Positions 31,518-49,456 of a DNA stretch of 64,000 nt are shown here, in pieces (the stretch's first letter is position 1; every line of letters starts with the position of its first letter). A program made the position numbers and the translations under genes. The notes under the pieces were generated by a model. That model saw only the letters and a program-made list of their open reading frames with translations, searched no databases and was not told the origin of the DNA. Source of the DNA: a virus; the IMG/VR virus record IMGVR_UViG_3300033153_013649, positions 32,001-96,000 of that record. One strand, 5' to 3'.

Positions 31518-32410
31518 AAAAACTCGTGAAACTTTTTTCATATCCTGGTGCAAAATATCATATAGTTCCAATTGTTAATAAATTAATAAGTAGATTGGAT
31601 CTAGATATTTATATAGAACCTTTTTTAGGGAGTGGGGATATTTTCTTGAATCTTAATAAGGATTTTAAATTTTATACGTTGAATGATATTAGTTTTGATT
31701 TGATGAATATATGGAATACTTTTAAAGAGATAGATTACGAATTATATAAAAAAGAAATAATGTTTATAAGAAATAAATTTGGAGATATTGGAAAAGATAA
31801 AGAGGCTTATTATACTTTTAGAGATTTTTTTAATGAAAAATTTTATAAGATTTGTGGTAAAGAATATAATAGAAGAGGAATATATCTTCATATTTTAATT
31901 TCCTCTTGTATTAATCATTTAGTGAGATTTGGACCGAAAGGCTTTTCTCAATCGTATGGCAAGAGATGGAATATTCTTTCTGAATTAGATTTTAAGAATT
32001 TCAAAAGAGTTTTAGAAGACGAAACTTTTACTAAACAATTCTTTTTTTGTAATTATAATTGGATTCATATTCCTAATCTTTATAATTATTTAAATCAGGG
32101 GAACGTTCTATTTTTTATGGATCCTCCTTATTATAATTCTCAGATACAAACGTATGGTAAAAATAATTTTAATAGAAACGATTTAATTAAATTTCTTAAA
32201 TTGATTAGTAATGCTAAAAGTAGAATTATATACACAGATATTCTAAATGAATATAATAAAGAATATTTAAAAAATTGGAATAGAATTTCTATTCAAAAAA
32301 ATATGAAAAATGTAGGTCCAAATAAAATTAAAAGAAGTGGGAAGGAAGAATATTTATTTTATAATTTTAATTCTAATAAATTCAGGGAATTAATAAATGA
32401 AAGAATGTAA
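31514..32410 (+). CDS. dam: DNA adenine methyltransferase (Dam/D12 class)
   Basis: YPGAK, YIEPFLGSG, LND and FMDPPY motifs. Confidence 0.85.
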   Translation: MKKLVKLFSYPGAKYHIVPIVNKLISRLDLDIYIEPFLGSGDIFLNLNKDFKFYTLNDISFDLMNIWNTFKEIDYELYKKEIMFIRNKFGDIGKDKEAYYTFRDFFNEKFYKICGKEYNRRGIYLHILISSCINHLVRFGPKGFSQSYGKRWNILSELDFKNFKRVLEDETFTKQFFFCNYNWIHIPNLYNYLNQGNVLFFMDPPYYNSQIQTYGKNNFNRNDLIKFLKLISNAKSRIIYTDILNEYNKEYLKNWNRISIQKNMKNVGPNKIKRSGKEEYLFYNFNSNKFRELINERM

Positions 32411-37201: not shown

Positions 37202-37789
37202 ATGTCTAATATATATGCGTTTACAGATTTTGAAACAACAGGGGTTAACCCTCTTGTTGATCTTCCGATTGAGATAGGAATAATTTTTACAGATTATAAT
37301 TTTAATATTCTTACTTCGTACGAAGCGCTTATTCGTCAAAAAAAGGTTTTAGTTAGAATTAACGGAATTCCGAAATGGAAACCAGAATTCAGAGAAGCTT
37401 TCGAAGTTCATAATATTTCCCCAGAAGAATATATCAAAAAAGCAAAACCTCCTCAAGCTGTTTGTACTGAAATAAGAATGTTTTGTCAATCTTTATCGAA
37501 AAATCCTTCTAAAGAAATATATATAGTTTCAGATAATCCGTATTTTGAACAAACTTTTATACGTAAACTTTTTGGTCAATCTCAAACTCCTTTTCCTTTT
37601 CATTATAATGCAAGAGGAACTTTGATGATTACTGATCTCGCGGGCGTACGCTCGCACGCGCATACACATAGAGGATTAGAAGACATCAAGGGAACTTATA
37701 TGGATTTTATTGAAGCGTGTAAAAAATTAAATCTGCTTAAAGAAGAAAAAGAAATTTTCAAATTAACGAAAGGAGAAATACTTGGCTAA
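37202..37789 (+). CDS. DEDDh 3'-5' exonuclease
   Basis: DFETTG, EIG, A.EVHNI and HRGLED motifs. Confidence 0.85.
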   Translation: MSNIYAFTDFETTGVNPLVDLPIEIGIIFTDYNFNILTSYEALIRQKKVLVRINGIPKWKPEFREAFEVHNISPEEYIKKAKPPQAVCTEIRMFCQSLSKNPSKEIYIVSDNPYFEQTFIRKLFGQSQTPFPFHYNARGTLMITDLAGVRSHAHTHRGLEDIKGTYMDFIEACKKLNLLKEEKEIFKLTKGEILG

Positions 37790-38315
37790 GAAAAACAAAT
37801 GTAAAGATTTAGAGATAAAAGACGTATATAAGGATATCCATCTTAATAATTTACTGCATGCGGGAGATTTAGATGATATAAAAGATCCTCTTCAAGAAAT
37901 GCTTAATCTTCAAAAGAAACTTCAGAAACATATAGCAAAGTCAAAACCAGAATATCAAAAATTATTCGGGAAAGATCTTGGTCCGAAAATGACAGTTACT
38001 AATATGGCTTTATTTTTTATGTTTCAGAATCAATCTATGCTAGATGAGCAACAAGAAGAATTAGAAGCTATCGGTGGGGAAAGATTTGGAAATGCTTCTT
38101 GGAAATATTGGAAGAAAGATCATAAAAATGCTCAGTCTCTAAGATTCATTGACCTTTCTCCGGAAGAGATTCTTGAAGCTAAATATGAATGGATTGATTC
38201 TTGGCATTTTATGATGAATAAAGCAATAGCTCTTGGTTTAACTTCTCAAGAAATAACTAATTTATATTTCGCAAAAAACGCTGAAAATATAAGAAGACAG
38301 AACGAAAATTATTAA
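37782..38315 (+). CDS. dCTPase/dUTPase, gp56-like (all-alpha dimeric)
   Basis: MLNLQKKLQ, DEQQE, WKYWK, E.ID.WHF.MN and KNAENIRRQ..Y motifs. Confidence 0.88.
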   Translation: MAKKNKCKDLEIKDVYKDIHLNNLLHAGDLDDIKDPLQEMLNLQKKLQKHIAKSKPEYQKLFGKDLGPKMTVTNMALFFMFQNQSMLDEQQEELEAIGGERFGNASWKYWKKDHKNAQSLRFIDLSPEEILEAKYEWIDSWHFMMNKAIALGLTSQEITNLYFAKNAENIRRQNENY

Positions 38316-39072: not shown

Positions 39073-39600
39073 TTGGAAACGAAAAAAAGTAATATAATTG
39101 GAATTACTGGTACTCATGGGGTAGGAAAATCTTATTTTGCTTTTGAAGAAGCTTTAAGACAGAAAGATTTAAATCCTATAGCAAAGATTACTTTAATAGA
39201 AGAACAGGGGATACTTGATAATCCATTTCCAATTAATAAAAGAGCACAAAATGAATCTCAGATGTGGGTAATGTGCGCAGAGATGATGCAACATTTTTTG
39301 AATTATGCAAACAAAAAAATCGATTTAATAATTACAGATAGAACTATATTCGATTGTATTCCTTATTCAATGGTAAACGGTTTACCATTTGCAAAAGCTT
39401 TATATGATATTACTAAGCATTTTGGATATATGTATAAAAAGATTTATATTTTAGATCCACGAAAAAGAAAATATGTTTTTGATAACGGAATAAGGTCAGT
39501 TGATAAAAATTACCGATCTGAAGTACATGAAAAATTTATAGAATTATTCAAAAGATTAAAAAATAACAATTATATAAAACATTATGAGGTAGTAGGATGA
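39073..39600 (+). CDS. P-loop nucleotide kinase (AAA_28/NadR-like)
   Basis: ITGTHGVGKS, ITDRTIFD and DNGIRS motifs. Confidence 0.75.
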   Translation: METKKSNIIGITGTHGVGKSYFAFEEALRQKDLNPIAKITLIEEQGILDNPFPINKRAQNESQMWVMCAEMMQHFLNYANKKIDLIITDRTIFDCIPYSMVNGLPFAKALYDITKHFGYMYKKIYILDPRKRKYVFDNGIRSVDKNYRSEVHEKFIELFKRLKNNNYIKHYEVVG

Positions 39601-40277
39601 GATTTATAAATCCGAGTTTTTCAATCGAAGATGAGAAATATCTTGATCCTATTAGAATAATGAAACTTATTGAACGAGCAGGAAGAAATTGTTATAAATC
39701 AGAGAAAAAGATAACAAAGGATTCTTATATCAATTTTATTAAAATGCTCGTTCAGAATTATAAGCATCTTTCTGTAATTGAGCATGGGAATATAACAGTA
39801 AGATTTATATGTAATCGAGGATTTACTCATGAACTAGTTCGTCATAGATTAGCAGCTTATTCTCAAGAATCAACAAGATATTGTAATTATTCTAAAGGAA
39901 AATCCCCTCATATTACTTTTATAATTCCTTCAATATATCAGGATATTCTAAAACCTGGAGAATATGATTTTGATTGTTGGTTTAGTAATGAATTTTCTGA
40001 AACCCCTGGGTTAATTGATTGGATATTAGCGATGGCGTCAGCAGAAGAAAGTTATTTTACTTTAATTAATAACGGTTTAAAACCTCAAATTGCTCGAGGG
40101 GTATTACCAATTGATTTGAAAACTGAAATTGTAATGACTTGTAATCTTCGTGAATGGAGGCATATTTTTAGTTTAAGAACTTCAGAAGCAGCTCATCCTT
40201 CAATGCATCAACTTATGAGGCCGCTTCTTAAAAAGTTTAAAGAAATGTTTCCTCCAATTTATGAAGATATAATATAG
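39597..40277 (+). CDS. thyX: Flavin-dependent thymidylate synthase
   Basis: H.SVIEH, ELVRHRLAAYSQESTRY, ARGVLP and NLREWRH motifs. Confidence 0.95.
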   Translation: MRFINPSFSIEDEKYLDPIRIMKLIERAGRNCYKSEKKITKDSYINFIKMLVQNYKHLSVIEHGNITVRFICNRGFTHELVRHRLAAYSQESTRYCNYSKGKSPHITFIIPSIYQDILKPGEYDFDCWFSNEFSETPGLIDWILAMASAEESYFTLINNGLKPQIARGVLPIDLKTEIVMTCNLREWRHIFSLRTSEAAHPSMHQLMRPLLKKFKEMFPPIYEDII

Positions 40278-42073: not shown

Positions 42074-42622
42074 ATGAAAATTCTTGTAAATAGCCTATTA
42101 TTTTATGGTATAATATTTGATGAAAATGTTATTTTTGAAGATGCTTTTGTATCTGAAGAGTCTTATCTTGATTATGAAGATTTCGTAGAGAAATGCCGAA
42201 AAAATGATGAATTTATTTATGAAAATTCTGATTTTCTAAAGATATATTGGTATCATAAATTAGGTTATAAATTCGAACGTTATTCGGAAATTTCTATTCC
42301 AGAGGATAAAGGAAAAATTACTTATGAATGTAAAAGAAAAATTGCAGAGAAATTTCTTAAAGAAACAGGGATTGCTTTTGATGTGTTTCGTATGAGTTTT
42401 GGCCCTGAAGGTTTAATTATTGGAATAAAAGATACCTTTCTTAGAGTAGATTCTGGTGATTCACCTATTGATATATTTAAAGAATTCAAAAAGAAAGAAA
42501 TTAATTTTCCGGGGGATCAAAAGAAAAAAACCTTTTGGAACAGTCAAATTAGGGACTTTTGTAATGTTATTGGTCTGAAATTTGTTCAACCGAAATGGTT
42601 ACTTACTTTATATTGTTATTAA
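42074..42622 (+). CDS. Hypothetical protein
   Basis: 182-aa ORF. Confidence 0.55.
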   Translation: MKILVNSLLFYGIIFDENVIFEDAFVSEESYLDYEDFVEKCRKNDEFIYENSDFLKIYWYHKLGYKFERYSEISIPEDKGKITYECKRKIAEKFLKETGIAFDVFRMSFGPEGLIIGIKDTFLRVDSGDSPIDIFKEFKKKEINFPGDQKKKTFWNSQIRDFCNVIGLKFVQPKWLLTLYCY

Positions 42623-42641
42623 AAGGAGAAAAATAGAAATT

Positions 42642-43103
42642 ATGTTAAAGGAGAAAGATTTAAACACTTATAGAGAAATTCTTAAAGTGTTTCAGAAAAG
42701 AAGTACTTGTAAATCTCTAAAAGTATCAGCAATAATTATTAAAGACGGTCGTATTATTTCAACTGGATGGAACGGAGTACCTTCTGGATTTAAACATTGT
42801 GAAGATAGAGATTGGTCTGATTGTAAAAATCATGATGAATGGAGAAGGAAGCATTTAGAATTCCAAAAGAAATATGAAACCCATGCCGAAATGAACGCGA
42901 TTGCGTTTGCTGCAAAAAATGGAATTAAAACCGAAGGATCTGTAATTTTTTCATCAATTTCTCCCTGTAATGATTGTGCAAAATTAATTCTTCAATCGGG
43001 TATTAAAGAGGTTTATTATATAAAAAAATATGATCGACCTGATTTTGATGGATTATCTTTGCTTAAAAAAGCGAAGATAAGATGTTATAAAATAGAAGAA
43101 TAA
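42642..43103 (+). CDS. cd: dCMP deaminase
   Basis: RSTC, ISTGWNG, HAEMNAI and SPCNDC motifs; ATG at 42642 with an AGGAG RBS. Confidence 0.93.
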   Translation: MLKEKDLNTYREILKVFQKRSTCKSLKVSAIIIKDGRIISTGWNGVPSGFKHCEDRDWSDCKNHDEWRRKHLEFQKKYETHAEMNAIAFAAKNGIKTEGSVIFSSISPCNDCAKLILQSGIKEVYYIKKYDRPDFDGLSLLKKAKIRCYKIEE

Positions 43104-43119
43104 TATTATTAAATTTATG

Positions 43120-43149
43120 TTGACAAACTATTTTTAAATTTAGTATATT
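43120..43149 (+). promoter_or_regulatory. Sigma70-type promoter heading the DNA-modification operon
   Basis: TTGACA-N18-TATATT. Confidence 0.7.
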
Positions 43150-43152
43150 TTA

Positions 43153-43425
43153 TTGAAGAGAAAAAATGGGAAATTCAGAATGAAACAATATCTTAAAAAT
43201 CTCATAAAAGAACAACAACAAAATTTTCTTTTTATTATAGGTCTTTGGATCGGTATAATTGTAGCAAGTATTATATTTAGAACTAGTTGGGAATATGTAG
43301 TAGTTTGCTTGATTGGATTTGTTTGTAATATTATGGCTATATTTGTTATTGCGTTTATTATAAAGGTTGTTGTATGGTTTTTGCAATGTATCTTTTTAAG
43401 GAAAAGAGGAAAAAATGAGTATTAG
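43153..43425 (+). CDS. Small 2-TM membrane protein
   Basis: Two hydrophobic segments. Confidence 0.55.
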   Translation: MKRKNGKFRMKQYLKNLIKEQQQNFLFIIGLWIGIIVASIIFRTSWEYVVVCLIGFVCNIMAIFVIAFIIKVVVWFLQCIFLRKRGKNEY

Positions 43426-44041
43426 TTGCTTTCTTTCTAATAATGTAATTATTTCTGTAATGGGGCCAAGAAATACAGGAAAATCAACTTTAGTAGAAGC
43501 TTTACGATTAAATACAGGTATTAAAGTTAGAAAATTTCCCTTTAAAGATTATGTTACAAAAATTTTAGACAGAAAATCAGCAGAAACCGGAGGATTTTCA
43601 CTAGGAAAAGATTTACAGCTTTATTCTTTAATTAGTGATGGTTTGATTAAAACCCCTCTTATTCTTGATCGAGGAGATTTTTTTACTTCTTCTGTATATG
43701 GACTTTTAGATCAACGAATTTCTAGAAAAGTAGCCATAGAACATATTGAATATATGACAGAAAAATTTTTTCTTAGAGGGGATCCGATACCCGTTTATTT
43801 TATTTATTGTGAAATAGATGAATGTGTACCAGGAAACGAAATTCCAGAGAGGATGAGGAAAGATTCTTGGGATGATATGAAAAATTGGAAAGAAGAATCA
43901 GATTTATATAAAGAGATGGTTGAGATTTTTGAAAATAAAGTTCAAGATAGAATAATTAGATATAAAAACAATTTCGAATTTGATGCTCTTCTAAATATAG
44001 TAGAAACTCTTAAAATGATCTTACCAAAAAATGAATACTAA
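43415..44041 (+). CDS. Nucleotide (dNMP/thymidylate-type) kinase
   Basis: MGPRNTGKST P-loop and ILDRG motif. Confidence 0.75.
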   Translation: MSISCFLSNNVIISVMGPRNTGKSTLVEALRLNTGIKVRKFPFKDYVTKILDRKSAETGGFSLGKDLQLYSLISDGLIKTPLILDRGDFFTSSVYGLLDQRISRKVAIEHIEYMTEKFFLRGDPIPVYFIYCEIDECVPGNEIPERMRKDSWDDMKNWKEESDLYKEMVEIFENKVQDRIIRYKNNFEFDALLNIVETLKMILPKNEY

Positions 44042-44708
44042 TGATTTTATTCCATACAAATATTTTGGATTAAAAGAAGCTTTTGAAGAAATATTTGAAA
44101 AACAGGGGAAATTGTTTTGGAAATATATAGCTTCAGAAACTTCTTATGAAATAAACTCTCCGAAAGATTTGGATTTTGATATTAATATTTATCAAGATCA
44201 ACAATTATTTAAAGATATGCTTCAAATTAGATTCACAGAAGAATTAACTGAAGCTACAGAAGATTTAAAACATTATGATCATTTTGAAGAAGAAATAATA
44301 GATGCTTTTAATTTTTTAGTTTCGACCTATATTCTTTATGGCTGGGGAATCAAAGATCTTAAAAAATGGAATTCTAATAAGAAAATATTATATACTAATC
44401 TTCGATATATTTCTTCTTATTCAGAAATTAAGTCTAAAGAATTTTTAATCAAATTAGAAAATGAATTAAAAATCAAGATGTATGAAATAATAAAAGCAGT
44501 AGGGGAAACGTGTAATCTTCTTAAAAATAGGCCTTGGCGGGGAACTCAATATCTTGTAGATTTATATAAATTCGAACCCAGATTTAGAAAAATATGGATA
44601 GAATTTAATGATTTATGTAATGAATTATTAATAAGTCCTAAACGATTATTTGAATTATGGTCTTTGAAATTTCAATGTAACTTGTATAGGATAGATACAA
44701 ACTATTAG
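44031..44708 (+). CDS. All-alpha NTP pyrophosphatase (dUTPase/dCTPase/MazG-like)
   Basis: EELTEA...EEIIDAFNF, LKNRPW and K...N..RI..NY motifs. Confidence 0.75.
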   Translation: MNTNDFIPYKYFGLKEAFEEIFEKQGKLFWKYIASETSYEINSPKDLDFDINIYQDQQLFKDMLQIRFTEELTEATEDLKHYDHFEEEIIDAFNFLVSTYILYGWGIKDLKKWNSNKKILYTNLRYISSYSEIKSKEFLIKLENELKIKMYEIIKAVGETCNLLKNRPWRGTQYLVDLYKFEPRFRKIWIEFNDLCNELLISPKRLFELWSLKFQCNLYRIDTNY

Positions 44709-44774
44709 TTTTACTTGTTTTTTAATCTATATTTAAAGTAAGATATTAATCCGAATTTACAAAGGAGAAATAAA

Positions 44775-46208
44775 ATGTGTGGTTTTGCTTTAATAAAAGC
44801 AAATATAGAAAAAGGAAATCTTATTCGTCATAGAGGCATAGAAAAATCTTCGGTTCCAATGAATTCAATTTGTGATAGCGATAAATTCATAGGATTAAGA
44901 GATTATTATATTGCTGTTCATCATCGTCTTCCTATTCAAACTATTGAAGGGGATGAATGGAAACAACCAATTGAAGTAGATGATAATGTTTGGATGATGT
45001 ATAATGGAGAAATATTTAATTATGATACTAATTATTATGAAAACGACGTACATTATTTAGTCGAATTTTTTAAAAATATTAATTGGCTAAAATTTTTTCT
45101 TGATAGTTATTACAGGAGAAGATTTCTTTTAGAGATAAATTCATGGGATGGATTTTGGTCTATTTTCTTAATTGATAGTAAAAATGGAATAACTGTAACT
45201 TTTACTGATCCTCTTGGAAAGAAACAACTTTATTATAATGATGATTTTGAATTTGCTTCTGAATTGAAACCTCTTATTATAGAAGACAGATGTAATTATG
45301 ATTTAATATTTAAATCTCAAATTGCAAAATGGGGTTATAATACAAACGAGAGAACCCCTTATAAAAATATTAAAAGGATATTACCAAATACGATTTATTT
45401 ATTTTTTTCAGGAAGAACAGATTTAATTACTACGATTCCGAATTATTATTCTTTTGAATCTAATAATATTACACCTTTTAGATTGAAAGCTCTTCTTGAA
45501 AAATCAGTAGAAAGAAGATTACTTTCTAAAAAATATAAAATAGGGGTTTTACTTTCTGGAGGATTAGATTCTTCTATAATAGCTACTATTCTAGAAAAAC
45601 GATTTGAAAAAACTGATGTTATATATTATTCTGTTGATAACGAAGAAAGAAAATATGTTGAAATTCTTCAAAAAGAATTAGGAATAAAGGTTAATTTCTT
45701 TGAATATAAAATAGAAGATTATGATCTTTATAATGTATATGTTAATGATTACGAATTTCCTATTGATCTTGGGTCTTGTATTCCTCAATTAAAATTATTT
45801 GAAAATATTAAAGAAAAAATTGTACTTTCTGGTGATGGAGCAGATGAATTATTTGGAGGTTATAGAAGAATTGATGAATATGATTCTCAAAGATCAGATA
45901 TATTTGATGAATTATCTTATTTTCATCTTCCTAGATTAGATCGAGCTTCAATGAAATATACTATTGAACTTAGGAATCCTTATCTTGGACATGATATAAT
46001 TCGCAAAGCTTTGAAATTACCGATAGAAGAAAGAAAAAATAAAGCAATTCTTAAAAAGGAATTTTCTAATGACCTTCCACCTGAAATAATTTTTAGAAAA
46101 AAACATCCTCTTAAAAATCCTGAAATTGTTAAGGATAAAATAGCTTATAGATTCAAAGTTTTAGAAGCCTTTTATGGAGAAAATAACGGAAGATATTTCA
46201 ATGTCTAA
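44775..46208 (+). CDS. Asparagine synthetase-like glutamine amidotransferase / amide ligase
   Basis: N-terminal MCG (Ntn Cys2), HRG, H.RLPI, YNGEIFN, D.LGKKQLY, LSGGLDSS, SGDGADELFGGY and E.RNPYL motifs. Confidence 0.92.
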   Translation: MCGFALIKANIEKGNLIRHRGIEKSSVPMNSICDSDKFIGLRDYYIAVHHRLPIQTIEGDEWKQPIEVDDNVWMMYNGEIFNYDTNYYENDVHYLVEFFKNINWLKFFLDSYYRRRFLLEINSWDGFWSIFLIDSKNGITVTFTDPLGKKQLYYNDDFEFASELKPLIIEDRCNYDLIFKSQIAKWGYNTNERTPYKNIKRILPNTIYLFFSGRTDLITTIPNYYSFESNNITPFRLKALLEKSVERRLLSKKYKIGVLLSGGLDSSIIATILEKRFEKTDVIYYSVDNEERKYVEILQKELGIKVNFFEYKIEDYDLYNVYVNDYEFPIDLGSCIPQLKLFENIKEKIVLSGDGADELFGGYRRIDEYDSQRSDIFDELSYFHLPRLDRASMKYTIELRNPYLGHDIIRKALKLPIEERKNKAILKKEFSNDLPPEIIFRKKHPLKNPEIVKDKIAYRFKVLEAFYGENNGRYFNV

Positions 46209-47205
46209 ATTTCGAAATGAAATAGGTATTACTGAAAAATTGAGAATGATTTCAGACGAAATTCCAAAGGATTATCATTGTACTTGTAAATATTGTTCTT
46301 CTGATAATTTTATTGGTGAAATATATGATTGGTCTATTAATAAGTATTATTCTCAATTAGCTAGAAATAAATATTACTTTCCTCTTTCAAAGGATATAAA
46401 AAAACATCTTTGTCCTGGACAGTGGCAAGGTTATCGTTGGGCAGTTCAAAATTTTACTGATTCCGGAGACTGGACTTTCGATCCAACTGTAGGAACAGGA
46501 ACCTCTATGATTGAATCGTTGATTCATAGAAGAAACGCAGTTGGAATAGAATTAGAATATTCTTCTATTACTAGAATGAATTTAAATCATATTTATAATA
46601 CAATTGGAAAATCTGTATCTTATAAAACAAATCCTCTTGGGGTTAGTCATCTTATTAATGGAAATGCTCGAGATTTGAAAAAGTTATTAATCGATCTTGA
46701 AAAAAGAATATTCGGAACTTTTAATTTTCGATTAATTATGAATGGACCTCCTTATCCAATATTATCAGGGAAAAATGTTTCTTCGGATGCGCCAGAGCGT
46801 AAGATTTTTAAAGATAAAAATGGCAAGAAAGTAACTAAAATATCAAATGCAAAATTAGAAAAAGATCAATCCTTTGATTATCAAAATCCAGATAATTTTG
46901 GATCTAAAAGGGGAGAAGAATATTGGAATTTTATTACTAAAATGTATCTTGATTGTATTCCATTTATGGTCAAAAAGGGGAAGATGGTAATAATTATTAA
47001 AGATCTAGTTAATAAGAAAAAACCTTATCTTCTTCATAAAAAGGTTATAGATAATATTTTAAATCAGACAGATTTACTTAAATATTATGGATGGTATATT
47101 CATAAGCATATTCCAAGAACTATGTTTATGAATACTTATCCAAAAAGATTCCCTGAAGTAAAAATTCCTTTATATCAAACGGCAATAGTATTGGAAAAAA
47201 TATGA
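46174..47205 (+). CDS. Amino (N4C/N6A) DNA methyltransferase-like protein
   Basis: FDPTVGTGT (motif I), GIELE, GNAR and NGPPY (motif IV variant). The alternative start at 46201 overlaps the asparagine synthetase stop. Confidence 0.7.
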   Translation: MEKITEDISMSKFRNEIGITEKLRMISDEIPKDYHCTCKYCSSDNFIGEIYDWSINKYYSQLARNKYYFPLSKDIKKHLCPGQWQGYRWAVQNFTDSGDWTFDPTVGTGTSMIESLIHRRNAVGIELEYSSITRMNLNHIYNTIGKSVSYKTNPLGVSHLINGNARDLKKLLIDLEKRIFGTFNFRLIMNGPPYPILSGKNVSSDAPERKIFKDKNGKKVTKISNAKLEKDQSFDYQNPDNFGSKRGEEYWNFITKMYLDCIPFMVKKGKMVIIIKDLVNKKKPYLLHKKVIDNILNQTDLLKYYGWYIHKHIPRTMFMNTYPKRFPEVKIPLYQTAIVLEKI

Positions 47206-48413
47206 AGATATTAGGAATTCATGCTGGTGTAGGATCGATGATAATTCCAGCTAAAGAATTAAGATTGAATATAGTAGGAAATATTGAACCTCGCCGAATA
47301 TTTCATTATGGAGAACCCTTTCAAAGGTATTTTAATGCCCCAATGTATAAGAACTTTGATGATGTTTTTGCATTTCAAAATCAAGATATTCATATTGTAA
47401 TTGGTCATCCGGAATGCGGAGACTTTTCTAATTTAAAAATTAAGAAAAGTAATACGTATACCGTAAATGATATACGTCAATGGATGAAGATGACGCAAAT
47501 TATTAACCCTTTATATTTTGTTATGGATAATCTTCCTGGGGCAATGGATAAAATTACAGCAAAAGAATGGAACAAAATGTTTCCCGATTATGATATTTTC
47601 TTTGAATATATTTCAAATTATGATTATGGAAACGTTCAAAGGAACAGAAATCGATTATTTGTTATTGGAGCAAAAAGATTTTTAAAATTCACTTTTATCC
47701 CAGGAGGAAATCTTAATAATCTTACAACTAAAGAGGTAATATCGGGTCTTACAGAAAAAGACAAAAATCACGTTTTTCTGAAACCTGACGATGATATTCG
47801 TGGTTGGTCAACTTATAATATTCCATTACCGAAATTTCGTAATATAATTTCTAGGAGGATTAAATTTAAGGAATTCCAAAAATATTTGAATAGTATTCCA
47901 AGTAGTGAATACAATAAGAAATTATGGTACATAAACAAAAAAAATGAAAAGAAGAAAAGACCTATTTTATTAGTTACTTTAGATAAACCTTCTTATCTTT
48001 TAACTGGATCTAGTGGATTTGATAATATTTGGATTGCTGTAGAAAATAGACCGTTTACGATTAGAGAAAAATTGAGGATTCAAGGAGCTCCGGATGATTT
48101 TGTTCTTTATCCAACTGAATATGATTCAGGGGGAATTGTTCGGATGAAACATAATATACAAGTTGGTAAATTTATGCCAGTTCAAGCTTGTAGATATATT
48201 TTAAATCAGATTATGATTAATTGGTATAAAGATTCTCCGATAGAAGAAAAAAAGCAAACTGAATTAGAAAAAAATTATTTCAGGAGAACTATTTTTTCTT
48301 CTTCAATTAACAAGGCGAAAAGAGAATATTGTAATATAACTAATTATACTGATCAAGATAAAGCTTGTAAGTTTTGTTGGCTTAAAAAAGGATGTGTAAT
48401 TAAATTACATTAA
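47202..48413 (+). CDS. Divergent DNA cytosine-C5 methyltransferase homolog, candidate carboxymethyltransferase
   Basis: Motif I HAGVG, IV GHPEC (Cys72), VI MDNL, VIII QRNRNRLF, IX FTIREKLRIQG.PDDF and X QVGKFMP (Lys323 where Asn is canonical). Confidence 0.8.
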   Translation: MKILGIHAGVGSMIIPAKELRLNIVGNIEPRRIFHYGEPFQRYFNAPMYKNFDDVFAFQNQDIHIVIGHPECGDFSNLKIKKSNTYTVNDIRQWMKMTQIINPLYFVMDNLPGAMDKITAKEWNKMFPDYDIFFEYISNYDYGNVQRNRNRLFVIGAKRFLKFTFIPGGNLNNLTTKEVISGLTEKDKNHVFLKPDDDIRGWSTYNIPLPKFRNIISRRIKFKEFQKYLNSIPSSEYNKKLWYINKKNEKKKRPILLVTLDKPSYLLTGSSGFDNIWIAVENRPFTIREKLRIQGAPDDFVLYPTEYDSGGIVRMKHNIQVGKFMPVQACRYILNQIMINWYKDSPIEEKKQTELEKNYFRRTIFSSSINKAKREYCNITNYTDQDKACKFCWLKKGCVIKLH

Positions 48414-48427
48414 AAGATATTTTTATA

Positions 48428-48456
48428 TTGACAAAATACATTTAATTTTGTATATT
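48428..48456 (+). promoter_or_regulatory. Sigma70-type promoter
   Basis: TTGACA-N17-TATATT. Confidence 0.75.
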
Positions 48457-48511
48457 ATAATTGATGAATAATAAACAAAAGAAGATGAAAAATTAATTTA
48501 GGGGAAAGATT

Positions 48512-48700
48512 ATGAATGAAAATATTATGAGAAAAGTTGGCTTTGGTGATGAAATGGATCTTATTAAAAAAGGTCAATGTCCGCTTTGTCATGAAAAAGT
48601 TGATGTGAAAAATTTCCGGGATGAACTTTCAGTACGAGAGTTTAAAATTTCGGGTCTATGCCAGAAATGTCAAGATGATATATTCGAAATAGGTGAATAA
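48512..48700 (+). CDS. Small Zn-finger protein
   Basis: CPLC...FRDELSVREFKISGLCQKCQD. Confidence 0.7.
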   Translation: MNENIMRKVGFGDEMDLIKKGQCPLCHEKVDVKNFRDELSVREFKISGLCQKCQDDIFEIGE

Positions 48701-48724
48701 TAAATAATTGGAGAATTTAAATAT

Positions 48725-49456
48725 ATGAGAATATTTCGTGATTGTGAAGAAATGATAAAAGAAATAGATCGAGAATTACTTGTTTGTGGTATATCTTGTC
48801 CCGTGAAACATTATCAGAATAAAAAACTTCATGGCGAAGATCAAATTACTAAAGAATTAATTGGTTTAGGGTTTGTGATTGGGAAGCCTTTAAAAAAACG
48901 AGATGAAATGATTAAATTCGTTTTTGGGGACGAATGGGAAAAAATTAAAGCTTATTGTGAACAAGAACATTTAGATCGAGTTTGTGGTAAGCCATTAAAT
49001 CCAGGGCATTCATATAAAATCCGTCAGGATATGTGGCAAAAGTTTATGATTAATGACGAAACAGCTTTTGATTATACTTATTCCGAGCGTATATATTGGC
49101 AGATAGAAAATGTTTTGGAAGCTTTAAAAGAAGATAAACATACCCGTCAAGCTGTTATTCAAGTTTTTCAAGCTCAGATTGATAATAAGAAATTCGGTGG
49201 AGACACTCGAATTCCTTGTTCAGTAGATTGGCAATTTTTAATTAGAAATAATCGTTTAAATGTTATTTATCACATGAGATCGAATGATTATTATGGTCAC
49301 TTTCCTATTGATATATATTTATCAGCTTCTTTGATGCAATATTTTCGATCAAGATTGTTGGATTTTTATCCAGATCTTAAAACAGGGGCTCTAACTTATT
49401 TTGCTGGCAGCTTACACGCATATAGTTGGGATTTAAAAGAACACGTTGTGTTTTAA
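48725..49456 (+). CDS. Thymidylate synthase-fold enzyme, probable dCMP hydroxymethylase/methylase
   Basis: YTYSER, TRQA, catalytic IPCS, MRSNDYYGHFPID (Asp at the TS Asn177 position) and GSLHAY. Confidence 0.8.
   Translation: MRIFRDCEEMIKEIDRELLVCGISCPVKHYQNKKLHGEDQITKELIGLGFVIGKPLKKRDEMIKFVFGDEWEKIKAYCEQEHLDRVCGKPLNPGHSYKIRQDMWQKFMINDETAFDYTYSERIYWQIENVLEALKEDKHTRQAVIQVFQAQIDNKKFGGDTRIPCSVDWQFLIRNNRLNVIYHMRSNDYYGHFPIDIYLSASLMQYFRSRLLDFYPDLKTGALTYFAGSLHAYSWDLKEHVVF

Follow-up and report, generated by a model that had tools for sequence, protein, structure and literature searches.

The window analysed here is a stretch of 64,000 nucleotides from a virus (IMG/VR record IMGVR_UViG_3300033153_013649, positions 32,001 to 96,000 of that record). 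Between its positions 44775 and 48413, three tightly packed open reading frames (ORFs) on the + strand encode a glutamine-dependent amide ligase (P0001), a homolog of DNA amino-methyltransferases (amino-MTases; P0002) and a homolog of DNA cytosine-C5 methyltransferases (C5-MTases; P0003). P0003 carries a lysine at the position of the asparagine of motif X, and Lys or Arg occupies this position in nearly all members of its family, which is exclusively viral and, as judged from its sequences, independent from that of the natural carboxymethyltransferases called CmoX. The explanation that we favour, with less than even confidence, is that P0003 would transfer the carboxymethyl group of carboxy-S-adenosylmethionine (Cx-SAM) provided by the host, and that the resulting carboxylate would then be amidated, both steps being an add-on to a neighbouring cassette that is predicted to modify deoxycytidine monophosphate (dCMP). 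The three genes are the following:

44775..46208, + strand: P0001, 477 amino acids, glutamine-dependent asparagine-synthetase-like amide ligase (GATase_7 and Asn_synthase domains)
46174..47205, + strand: P0002, 343 amino acids, DNA amino-MTase homolog (PF01555, motif I region)
47202..48413, + strand: P0003, 403 amino acids, C5-MTase homolog (PF00145; alignment of K323; family-wide K/R; fold model)

Consecutive ORFs overlap, P0001 and P0002 at 46174-46208 and P0002 and P0003 through the sequence ATGA at 47202-47205.

A C5-MTase homolog with a cationic motif X

P0003 matches PF00145 with 52 bits (Pfam gathering cut-off, 22). Its motif IV is GHPECGDFS, in which the codon of the catalytic Cys72 is located at 47415-47417, motif VI is DNLPG and motif VIII is QRNRNR. 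Motif X is IQVGKFMP, so that the Gly-Asn pair of canonical C5-MTases reads GK, Lys323 being encoded by the AAA codon at 48168-48170. A previous reading of this DNA, made from the sequence only, had pointed out Cys72, the three altered motifs (IV, VI and X) and the Lys323 codon, and all of them were found to be correct when the ORF and its translation were checked. The same reading proposed that Lys323 replaces the motif X Asn, which two alignments bear out. In a profile search with a 15-homolog profile, Lys323 pairs with the Asn of the M.HaeIII sequence GNAVP, and in an hhalign alignment, in which QTGKFMP falls on RVGRMVP, it pairs with Arg350 of SpCmoX (PDB 8YF3; sequence taken from Synechococcus phage S-B43, MN018232). 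By alignment, therefore, Lys323 corresponds to the Asn of motif X.

An AlphaFold model of P0003 built on 60 sequences (pLDDT 93, pTM 0.92) shows the two-domain fold of DNA C5-MTases, target-recognition domain included. The model matches M.HaeIII, M.HhaI and 8YF3 in Foldseek searches, M.HaeIII being the best of them (E 2e-16). The 15-homolog profile agrees with this result, since it matches M.HaeIII over its full length with E 4e-29 and 8YF3 with E 1e-10. M.HaeIII (PDB 1DCT) is hence the closest solved relative both by profile and by fold, and these comparisons indicate that P0003 is not close kin of CmoX. It differs from M.HaeIII in the presence of HPECG, DNL and GK instead of GPPCQ, ENV and GN, respectively, as well as in a C-terminal extension with four cysteines.

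An exhaustive search yielded 316 representatives of related clusters, of which 77 had E <1e-30, and the family was found in viruses only. Residue conservation was scored in 60 full-length viral homologs clustered at 50% identity. Position 323 is Lys in 47 of them, Arg in 10 and another residue in the remaining three (Asn in one), a distribution which suggests that a positive charge beside C5 is under selection. Cys72 is invariant and is directly followed by an invariant Gly, where canonical enzymes have Gln, while the Pro that precedes the cysteine in the canonical PC motif has become a variable residue. The family consensus around the catalytic cysteine is H-P/T-x-C-G and lacks the SPPC sequence of CmoX. 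The acidic residue of motif VI (position 109) is Asp in 56 homologs and Glu in four, R149 and R151 of motif VIII and the glycines of motif I are invariant, and the acidic residue of motif II, which binds the ribose of the cofactor, is Glu in 52 cases and Asp in eight. The conservation of Cys72 and of motifs I, II and VIII suggests that binding of an adenosyl cofactor and covalent catalysis have been retained. Being closer to M.HaeIII than to CmoX and devoid of SPPC, the family is placed by its sequences as an independent lineage from CmoX.

Natural 5-carboxymethylcytosine was first reported in December 2025 (Yang et al. 2025, PMC12783734). In the crystal structure 8YF3, Arg350 of SpCmoX contacts the carboxylate of the carboxymethyl group of Cx-SAM, and the R350N mutant is inactive (PMC12783734). 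The survey published in that work defined CmoX by SPPC plus Arg (PMC12783734) and, because both were required, could not find the P0003 family. Engineered enzymes provide another precedent: when the homologous residue is replaced by Lys or Arg (M.MpeI N374K, M.CviPI Y205K/R), methyltransferases become carboxymethyltransferases by means of a salt bridge (Kohli laboratory; PMC13288465). The sequence-only reading had invoked M.MpeI N374K, which is documented, along with Dcm N436K, which could not be confirmed. The engineered enzymes are true methylases carrying single laboratory mutations, whereas the change in P0003 is natural, family-wide and accompanied by alterations in motifs IV and VI.

Several homologs are interrupted by inteins that contain a HINT domain and a DUF559/MTES_1575 endonuclease (P0032, P0046, P0048, P0063, P0070, P0082, P0085, P0092, P0094 and P0095). 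The insertion makes the motif IV catalytic cysteine the +1 extein residue, and the motif reads VHNCG.

The amide ligase and the amino-MTase homolog

P0001 is composed of a GATase_7 domain (class II glutaminase) and an Asn_synthase domain (PF00733, E 8e-35). It shows an N-terminal MCGF with the nucleophilic cysteine, the motif NGEIFN and the PP-loop SGGLDSS, and the N-terminal Cys is kept in at least 29 of 34 homologs. By sequence, both the N-terminal nucleophile (Ntn)-Cys glutaminase and the PP-loop are intact. The score of P0001 against TIGR01536, the NCBIfam equivalog for AsnB, is 184 bits, under the curated cut-off of 267. Thus, the 'complete asparagine synthetase' described previously stands as a glutamine-dependent ligase with both active sites and not as an AsnB equivalog: its sequence is AsnB-like, but it is not that of a bona fide asparagine synthetase. 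P0001 aligns with gp124 of Streptomyces phage TurkishDelight over the full length (E 3e-19) and with SpCmoY, the ligase of S-B43, with E 2e-7.

With respect to P0002, its Pfam match (N6_N4_Mtase, E 9e-7) covers only the motif I region, which reads DPTVGTGTS and is followed by NGPPY, of the NPPY type. The profile of the P0002 family matches beta-class N6A/N4C methyltransferases, with permuted motif order. PrmC and similar NPPY enzymes methylate amide nitrogens. The amide ligase and the amino-MTase lie upstream of P0003, in agreement with the close coupling of the three genes that the sequence-only reading described.

The C-terminus of P0003 (residues ~372-403, 48314-48413) contains a conserved four-cysteine cluster, C-x12-C-x2-C-x6-C, and the N-terminus of P0002 (residues ~33-43, 46270-46300) a conserved DYHCxCxxC. 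Judged by their sequences, both look like metal-binding sites. In P0026, P0030, P0035, P0049, P0064 and P0094 the C5 domain is fused to a C-terminal P0002-like domain, and in fused homologs the two cysteine motifs adjoin each other.

A predicted dCMP-modifying cassette

The three genes are flanked by genes for nucleotide metabolism, which include a thymidylate-synthase (TS) homolog:

39597..40277, + strand: ThyX flavin-dependent thymidylate synthase (PF02511, E 2e-44)
42582..43103, + strand: dCMP deaminase (PF00383, E 1e-21)
43415..44041, + strand: p208, P-loop protein similar to deoxynucleoside monophosphate (dNMP)/thymidylate kinases (phrog_761, E 6e-12)
44031..44708, + strand: p225, all-alpha nucleoside triphosphate pyrophosphohydrolase, dUTPase_2/MazG-like, candidate dCTPase (phrog_12184)
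48725..49456, + strand: cytosine-specific TS homolog, 243 amino acids, MilA/T4 gp42-like

The best PDB matches of the TS homolog are the CMP hydroxymethylase MilA and the T4 dCMP hydroxymethylase. Its catalytic Cys is within RIPCS, RSND and PID are present, and an Asp is found at the position of TS N177, a change established to switch the enzyme from dUMP to dCMP (PMC13326640). Asp169 is also kept, so that the Cys, Asp177 and Asp169 of gp42-type dCMP hydroxymethylases are all there. However, the position of TS L143, where dCMP hydroxymethylases have an acidic residue for water activation, is Arg; the residue is Asp in both T4 gp42 and MilA, and Glu in 9IQU, a 5-hydroxy-dCMP synthase. More than 90 relatives of the TS homolog (loci L001-L135) share, without exception, the signature formed by R(-3), D169 and D177, and its Arg, placed three positions ahead of the catalytic Cys, defines a large viral subfamily. 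This Arg is no marker of ligase cassettes, being present in all the relatives, including 34 without any other cassette gene nearby. A role as 5-hydroxy-dCMP synthase is ruled out by Asp169, since those synthases are marked by Asn (PMC13326640).

Deoxythymidine monophosphate is supplied by ThyX, which leaves the TS homolog available for a different function. The candidate dCTPase p225 has a weak profile match to the dimeric dUTPase 1w2y, and contigs with modified cytosine are enriched in dUTPase_2 (PMC8670742). A homolog of p208 occupies the same place in loci L001 and L041. Beside ThyX, at a greater distance upstream, are another pyrophosphohydrolase of the dUTPase_2-like kind and another P-loop kinase (AAA_28) (37782-38315 and 39073-39600; ThyX, 39597-40277); through this duplication the phage has two parallel sets of enzymes acting on nucleotide pools.

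The hydroxymethylcytosine pathway of T4 comprises the gp56 dCTPase, the gp42 dCMP hydroxymethylase, the gp1 kinase, the cd deaminase and glucosyltransferases. The same set of pre-replicative functions is found around P0003, and the TS homolog and gp42 share RSND and Asp177, differing in the residue placed three positions before the catalytic Cys (Arg instead of Asp). A T4-type glucosyltransferase was not found in the genome, a weak negative since the controls were barely matched; the decorating enzymes of T4 appear to be replaced by the C5-MTase homolog, the amide ligase and the amino-MTase. On this sequence evidence the cassette follows the T4 pathway in leading to a deoxycytidine triphosphate (dCTP) substituted at C5, which is probably 5-hydroxymethyl-dCTP.

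A YspA/SLOG-family protein (PF10686; 49446-49850) is encoded directly 3' of the TS homolog, and a cassette-proximal homolog of it exists in one other locus (L050). In a related cassette (L063:5839-6750), a protein of 303 amino acids combines an N-terminal kinase P-loop with a domain of the uracil-DNA-glycosylase superfamily.

Gene linkage across related loci

Neighbours were counted within 10 kb in 49 loci bearing the transferase, which belong to at least four unrelated phage backbones:

TS homolog: ~37 of 39 informative loci
Ligase: ~32 of 49 loci
dCMP deaminase: ~30 of 49 loci
Pyrophosphohydrolase: ~29 of 49 loci
Amino-MTase: ~16 of 49 loci
CmoA: 0 of 49 loci

Counted over the related loci, the dCMP deaminase was found in 32. 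A dNMP kinase is sometimes present in these cassettes, and every locus with the amino-MTase also possesses the ligase. A search seeded with the TS homolog added 77 further loci, in many of which the pyrophosphohydrolase is the sole companion of the TS homolog. In raw counts the ligase favours the company of the transferase (about 71% versus 15-33%), and so does the amino-MTase. PHROG searches with the small ORFs of cassettes without C5-MTase gave nothing useful.

Favoured explanation and alternatives

The steps that we infer are as follows. P0003 would be a post-replicative DNA cytosine-C5 transferase that keeps Cys72, Asp109, Arg149, Arg151 and the adenosyl-binding motifs, the pocket beside C5 having changed to hold a carboxylate through Lys323, and, like CmoX, it would move the carboxymethyl group of Cx-SAM onto cytosine. 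With no CmoA in the phage, Cx-SAM would have to be made by that of the host; SpCmoX was able to modify DNA in vivo with the CmoA of E. coli alone (PMC12783734). P0001 would then adenylate the carboxylate and amidate it with glutamine-derived ammonia to yield 5-carbamoylmethylcytosine, and the nitrogen of this amide, or else an exocyclic amine close to it, may be methylated by P0002. The three proteins would be optional additions to a conserved pre-replicative cassette, and the transferase would act on those cytosines that escape replacement. If it acts on residual cytosines only, a limited supply of cofactor from the host would be sufficient, and the lack of a CmoA in the phage would fit. The sequence-only reading had already put forward the passage from carboxymethyl to carbamoylmethyl; the cationic motif X, its conservation as Lys or Arg in the family and the CmoY-like ligase agree with it, but it had missed the pre-replicative cassette and the occurrence of the ligase without a C5-MTase elsewhere.

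Several results weigh against this explanation. CmoA was not found in the complete genome of 159,837 bp by searches with TIGR00740 and SpCmoA, and in 128 loci, which add up to 2.1 Mb, no match to CmoA of the S-B43 or TurkishDelight type reached E<=0.05, as the sequence-only reading had anticipated for the window. By contrast, the published CmoX set comprises 5615 contigs and 4257 CmoA genes (Yang et al. 2025, PMC12783734). P0003 shares with CmoX a positively charged residue where HhaI has N304 and SpCmoX has R350, but not the CmoA in the same genome or neighbourhood. A scan of genome contigs for a host taxon gave a single 4.3-kb contig of a metagenome-assembled genome and pointed to no host, so that the supply of Cx-SAM by the host is an assumption. 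The TS homolog with Asp177, the pyrophosphohydrolase and the kinase predict, from sequence, a pre-replicative C5 substitution that would remove the substrate. Since most cytosines are predicted to be substituted beforehand, the transferase would have to act on residual cytosines or re-work the installed base. In addition, at least five loci combine the pyrophosphohydrolase, the TS homolog and the glutamine-type ligase without any C5-MTase, and the 48,966-bp record behind one of them, rated 100% complete, has no PF00145 match anywhere; therefore, the carboxylate that is amidated need not derive from a C5-MTase. Tests of independent pairs on the TS tree did not give significance to the link between ligase and transferase, the pairs being too few. 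Finally, the engineered Lys/Arg mutants retain methylation dependent on SAM (PMC13288465).

The possibility that another methyltransferase-fold ORF of the phage supplies the cofactor, also raised by the sequence-only reading, did not hold for the two candidates considered. A class I SAM methyltransferase of 238 amino acids, whose specificity cannot be assigned, is encoded outside the window (genome positions 113150-113866, corresponding to L054:1291-2007). It was rejected as a hidden CmoA: it matches only generic profiles of the BioC/UbiE type, far under their cut-offs, its E value against SpCmoA is 0.77, CmoA is absent among its PDB matches and it is not kept in related loci. P0002 was equally discarded as cofactor synthase, since it is an NPPY amino-MTase and appears in only about one third of the loci.

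The pre-replicative cassette lends itself to a different explanation, which we consider rather unlikely: P0003 would re-work 5-hydroxymethylcytosine (5hmC) made through the linked TS homolog. After attack on C6, the hydroxymethyl group would be exchanged for a group bearing a carboxyl, or its hydroxyl would be substituted, and the anionic group would be held by Lys323. The hypermodification would then be completed by the ligase and the amino-MTase, in place of the glucosylation of T4. A route of this kind from carboxyl to amide to N-methylamide, independent of CmoA and built on 5hmC installed by the TS homolog, as a viral alternative to hydroxymethylcytosine glucosylation, is in our opinion similarly doubtful. 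It would account for a TS homolog that is nearly constant across unrelated phage backbones in which CmoA is never present, while S-B43, which bears CmoA, lacks the TS homolog, and it would fit the second pyrophosphohydrolase and second kinase beside the canonical set and, with the weakness mentioned above, the lack of a T4-type glucosyltransferase. C5-MTases have reportedly been seen to remove or substitute the hydroxymethyl group of 5hmC in vitro in the Klimasauskas laboratory, but we know of no natural C5-MTase that re-works 5hmC. Moreover, the adenosyl-binding residues and the switch to Lys or Arg are fully explained by the use of Cx-SAM on plain cytosine, the product of the TS homolog is only predicted, with Arg where hydroxymethylases have Asp or Glu, and the core formed by ligase and TS homolog exists without the transferase. 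This last fact, together with the methylation retained by the engineered mutants (PMC13288465) and with a ligase-transferase link that is not significant once relatedness is considered, is also what would be expected if P0003 were an ordinary 5-methylcytosine methyltransferase that tolerates Lys. The ligase would then belong to the TS pathway or to amino-acid metabolism and be a mere neighbour, and P0002 would be a separate N6A/N4C methylase with an anti-restriction role; phage methylases often have a C5 and an amino-MTase domain fused. We regard this as unlikely, although more probable than the proposal that follows, because the near-invariant Asn has become Lys or Arg in 57 of 60 diverse homologs, which points to selection for charge, because the family occurs only in viruses and only with the cassette, and because a plain methylase would be redundant where the cytosines of the genome are pre-modified.

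By analogy with diphthamide synthesis, P0003 might transfer the 3-amino-3-carboxypropyl group of SAM to C5, with Lys323 binding the alpha-carboxylate, and amidation and N-methylation would come after. CmoA would be unneeded, so its absence would be explained, and the group would offer an amine to the amino-MTase and a carboxylate to the ligase, in line with the presence of the ligase in all amino-MTase loci. Nevertheless, to our knowledge no enzyme with the C5-MTase fold transfers aminocarboxypropyl groups, and the proposal clashes with pre-replicative C5 substitution exactly as Cx-SAM carboxymethylation does; we hold it to be very improbable.

Comparison with CmoX systems

The CmoA-CmoX-CmoY system of S-B43 resembles the genes studied here in having a C5-MTase homolog with a cationic motif X beside a ligase of the asparagine-synthetase family, and in a post-replicative logic in which a carboxyl serves as handle for an amide. 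However, P0003 combines Lys with HPEC-G and CmoX combines Arg with SPPC-S, neither CmoA nor ParB accompanies P0003, and P0001 carries a glutaminase domain, while SpCmoY has none and uses glycine. The TS homolog, a near-constant neighbour of the P0003 family, has no counterpart in S-B43.

Streptomyces phage TurkishDelight (NC_073473.1, 88490-93518, gp121-125; L136), which is cultured, encodes in a row two ParB proteins, a CmoX, a glutamine-type ligase and a CmoA, whose annotations go no further than methyltransferases and a glutamine amidotransferase. Its ligase has the N-terminal Cys glutaminase and aligns with P0001 along the whole protein. In contrast to the window, where none of these is present, this phage has its own CmoA (E 2e-22 to SpCmoA), a CmoX of the Arg/SPPC type and the two ParB.

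The idea that natural carboxymethylcytosine serves as a handle for making amides has already been published, including a predicted class of ligases that use ammonia; for these glutamine-type ligases a carbamoylmethyl product, a primary amide, has been proposed (PMC12783734). The novelty claimed by the sequence-only reading, namely the Lys variant, the altered motifs and the lack of an obvious CmoA, holds; the product was anticipated by Yang et al. 2025. The new elements are a separate lineage of Lys type whose motifs IV and VI are altered, a CmoA that is missing throughout, the close linkage to an Arg-type cytosine-specific TS homolog and the amino-MTase that accompanies it. In the literature, no description was found of carbamoylmethylcytosine or of this combination of genes.

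The P0003 family constitutes a second lineage with a cationic motif X, related to M.HaeIII, purely viral and widespread in metagenomes, that has come to the same residue by a separate route. If host Cx-SAM is the cofactor, carboxymethylation would run on the host cofactor alone, alongside base replacement; if 5hmC is the substrate, the C5-MTase fold would have been turned to re-working hydroxymethylcytosine. Either outcome would add to the known cytosine hypermodifications and may provide natural Lys-type carboxymethyltransferases for sequencing chemistry.

Genomic setting

The source record is a complete viral genome of 159,837 bp with direct terminal repeats. Its G+C content is ~27%, and the + strand encodes almost all of its genes. 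A blastn search with positions 44000-49000 against GenBank phages gave zero matches, and tblastn with P0003 and P0001 gave only distant ones, so that a cultured carrier of the P0003 family was not found. Two promoter-like sites, both with 11 of 12 consensus positions, are located around the genes:

43120..43149, + strand: TTGACA-18-TATATT, preceding the gene block 43153-48413 (weak)
48428..48456, + strand: TTGACA-17-TATATT, just 3' of the P0003 stop codon (weak)

These sites are weak evidence because their total number is not above that of shuffled sequence. The second one precedes an ORF of 62 amino acids and the TS homolog.

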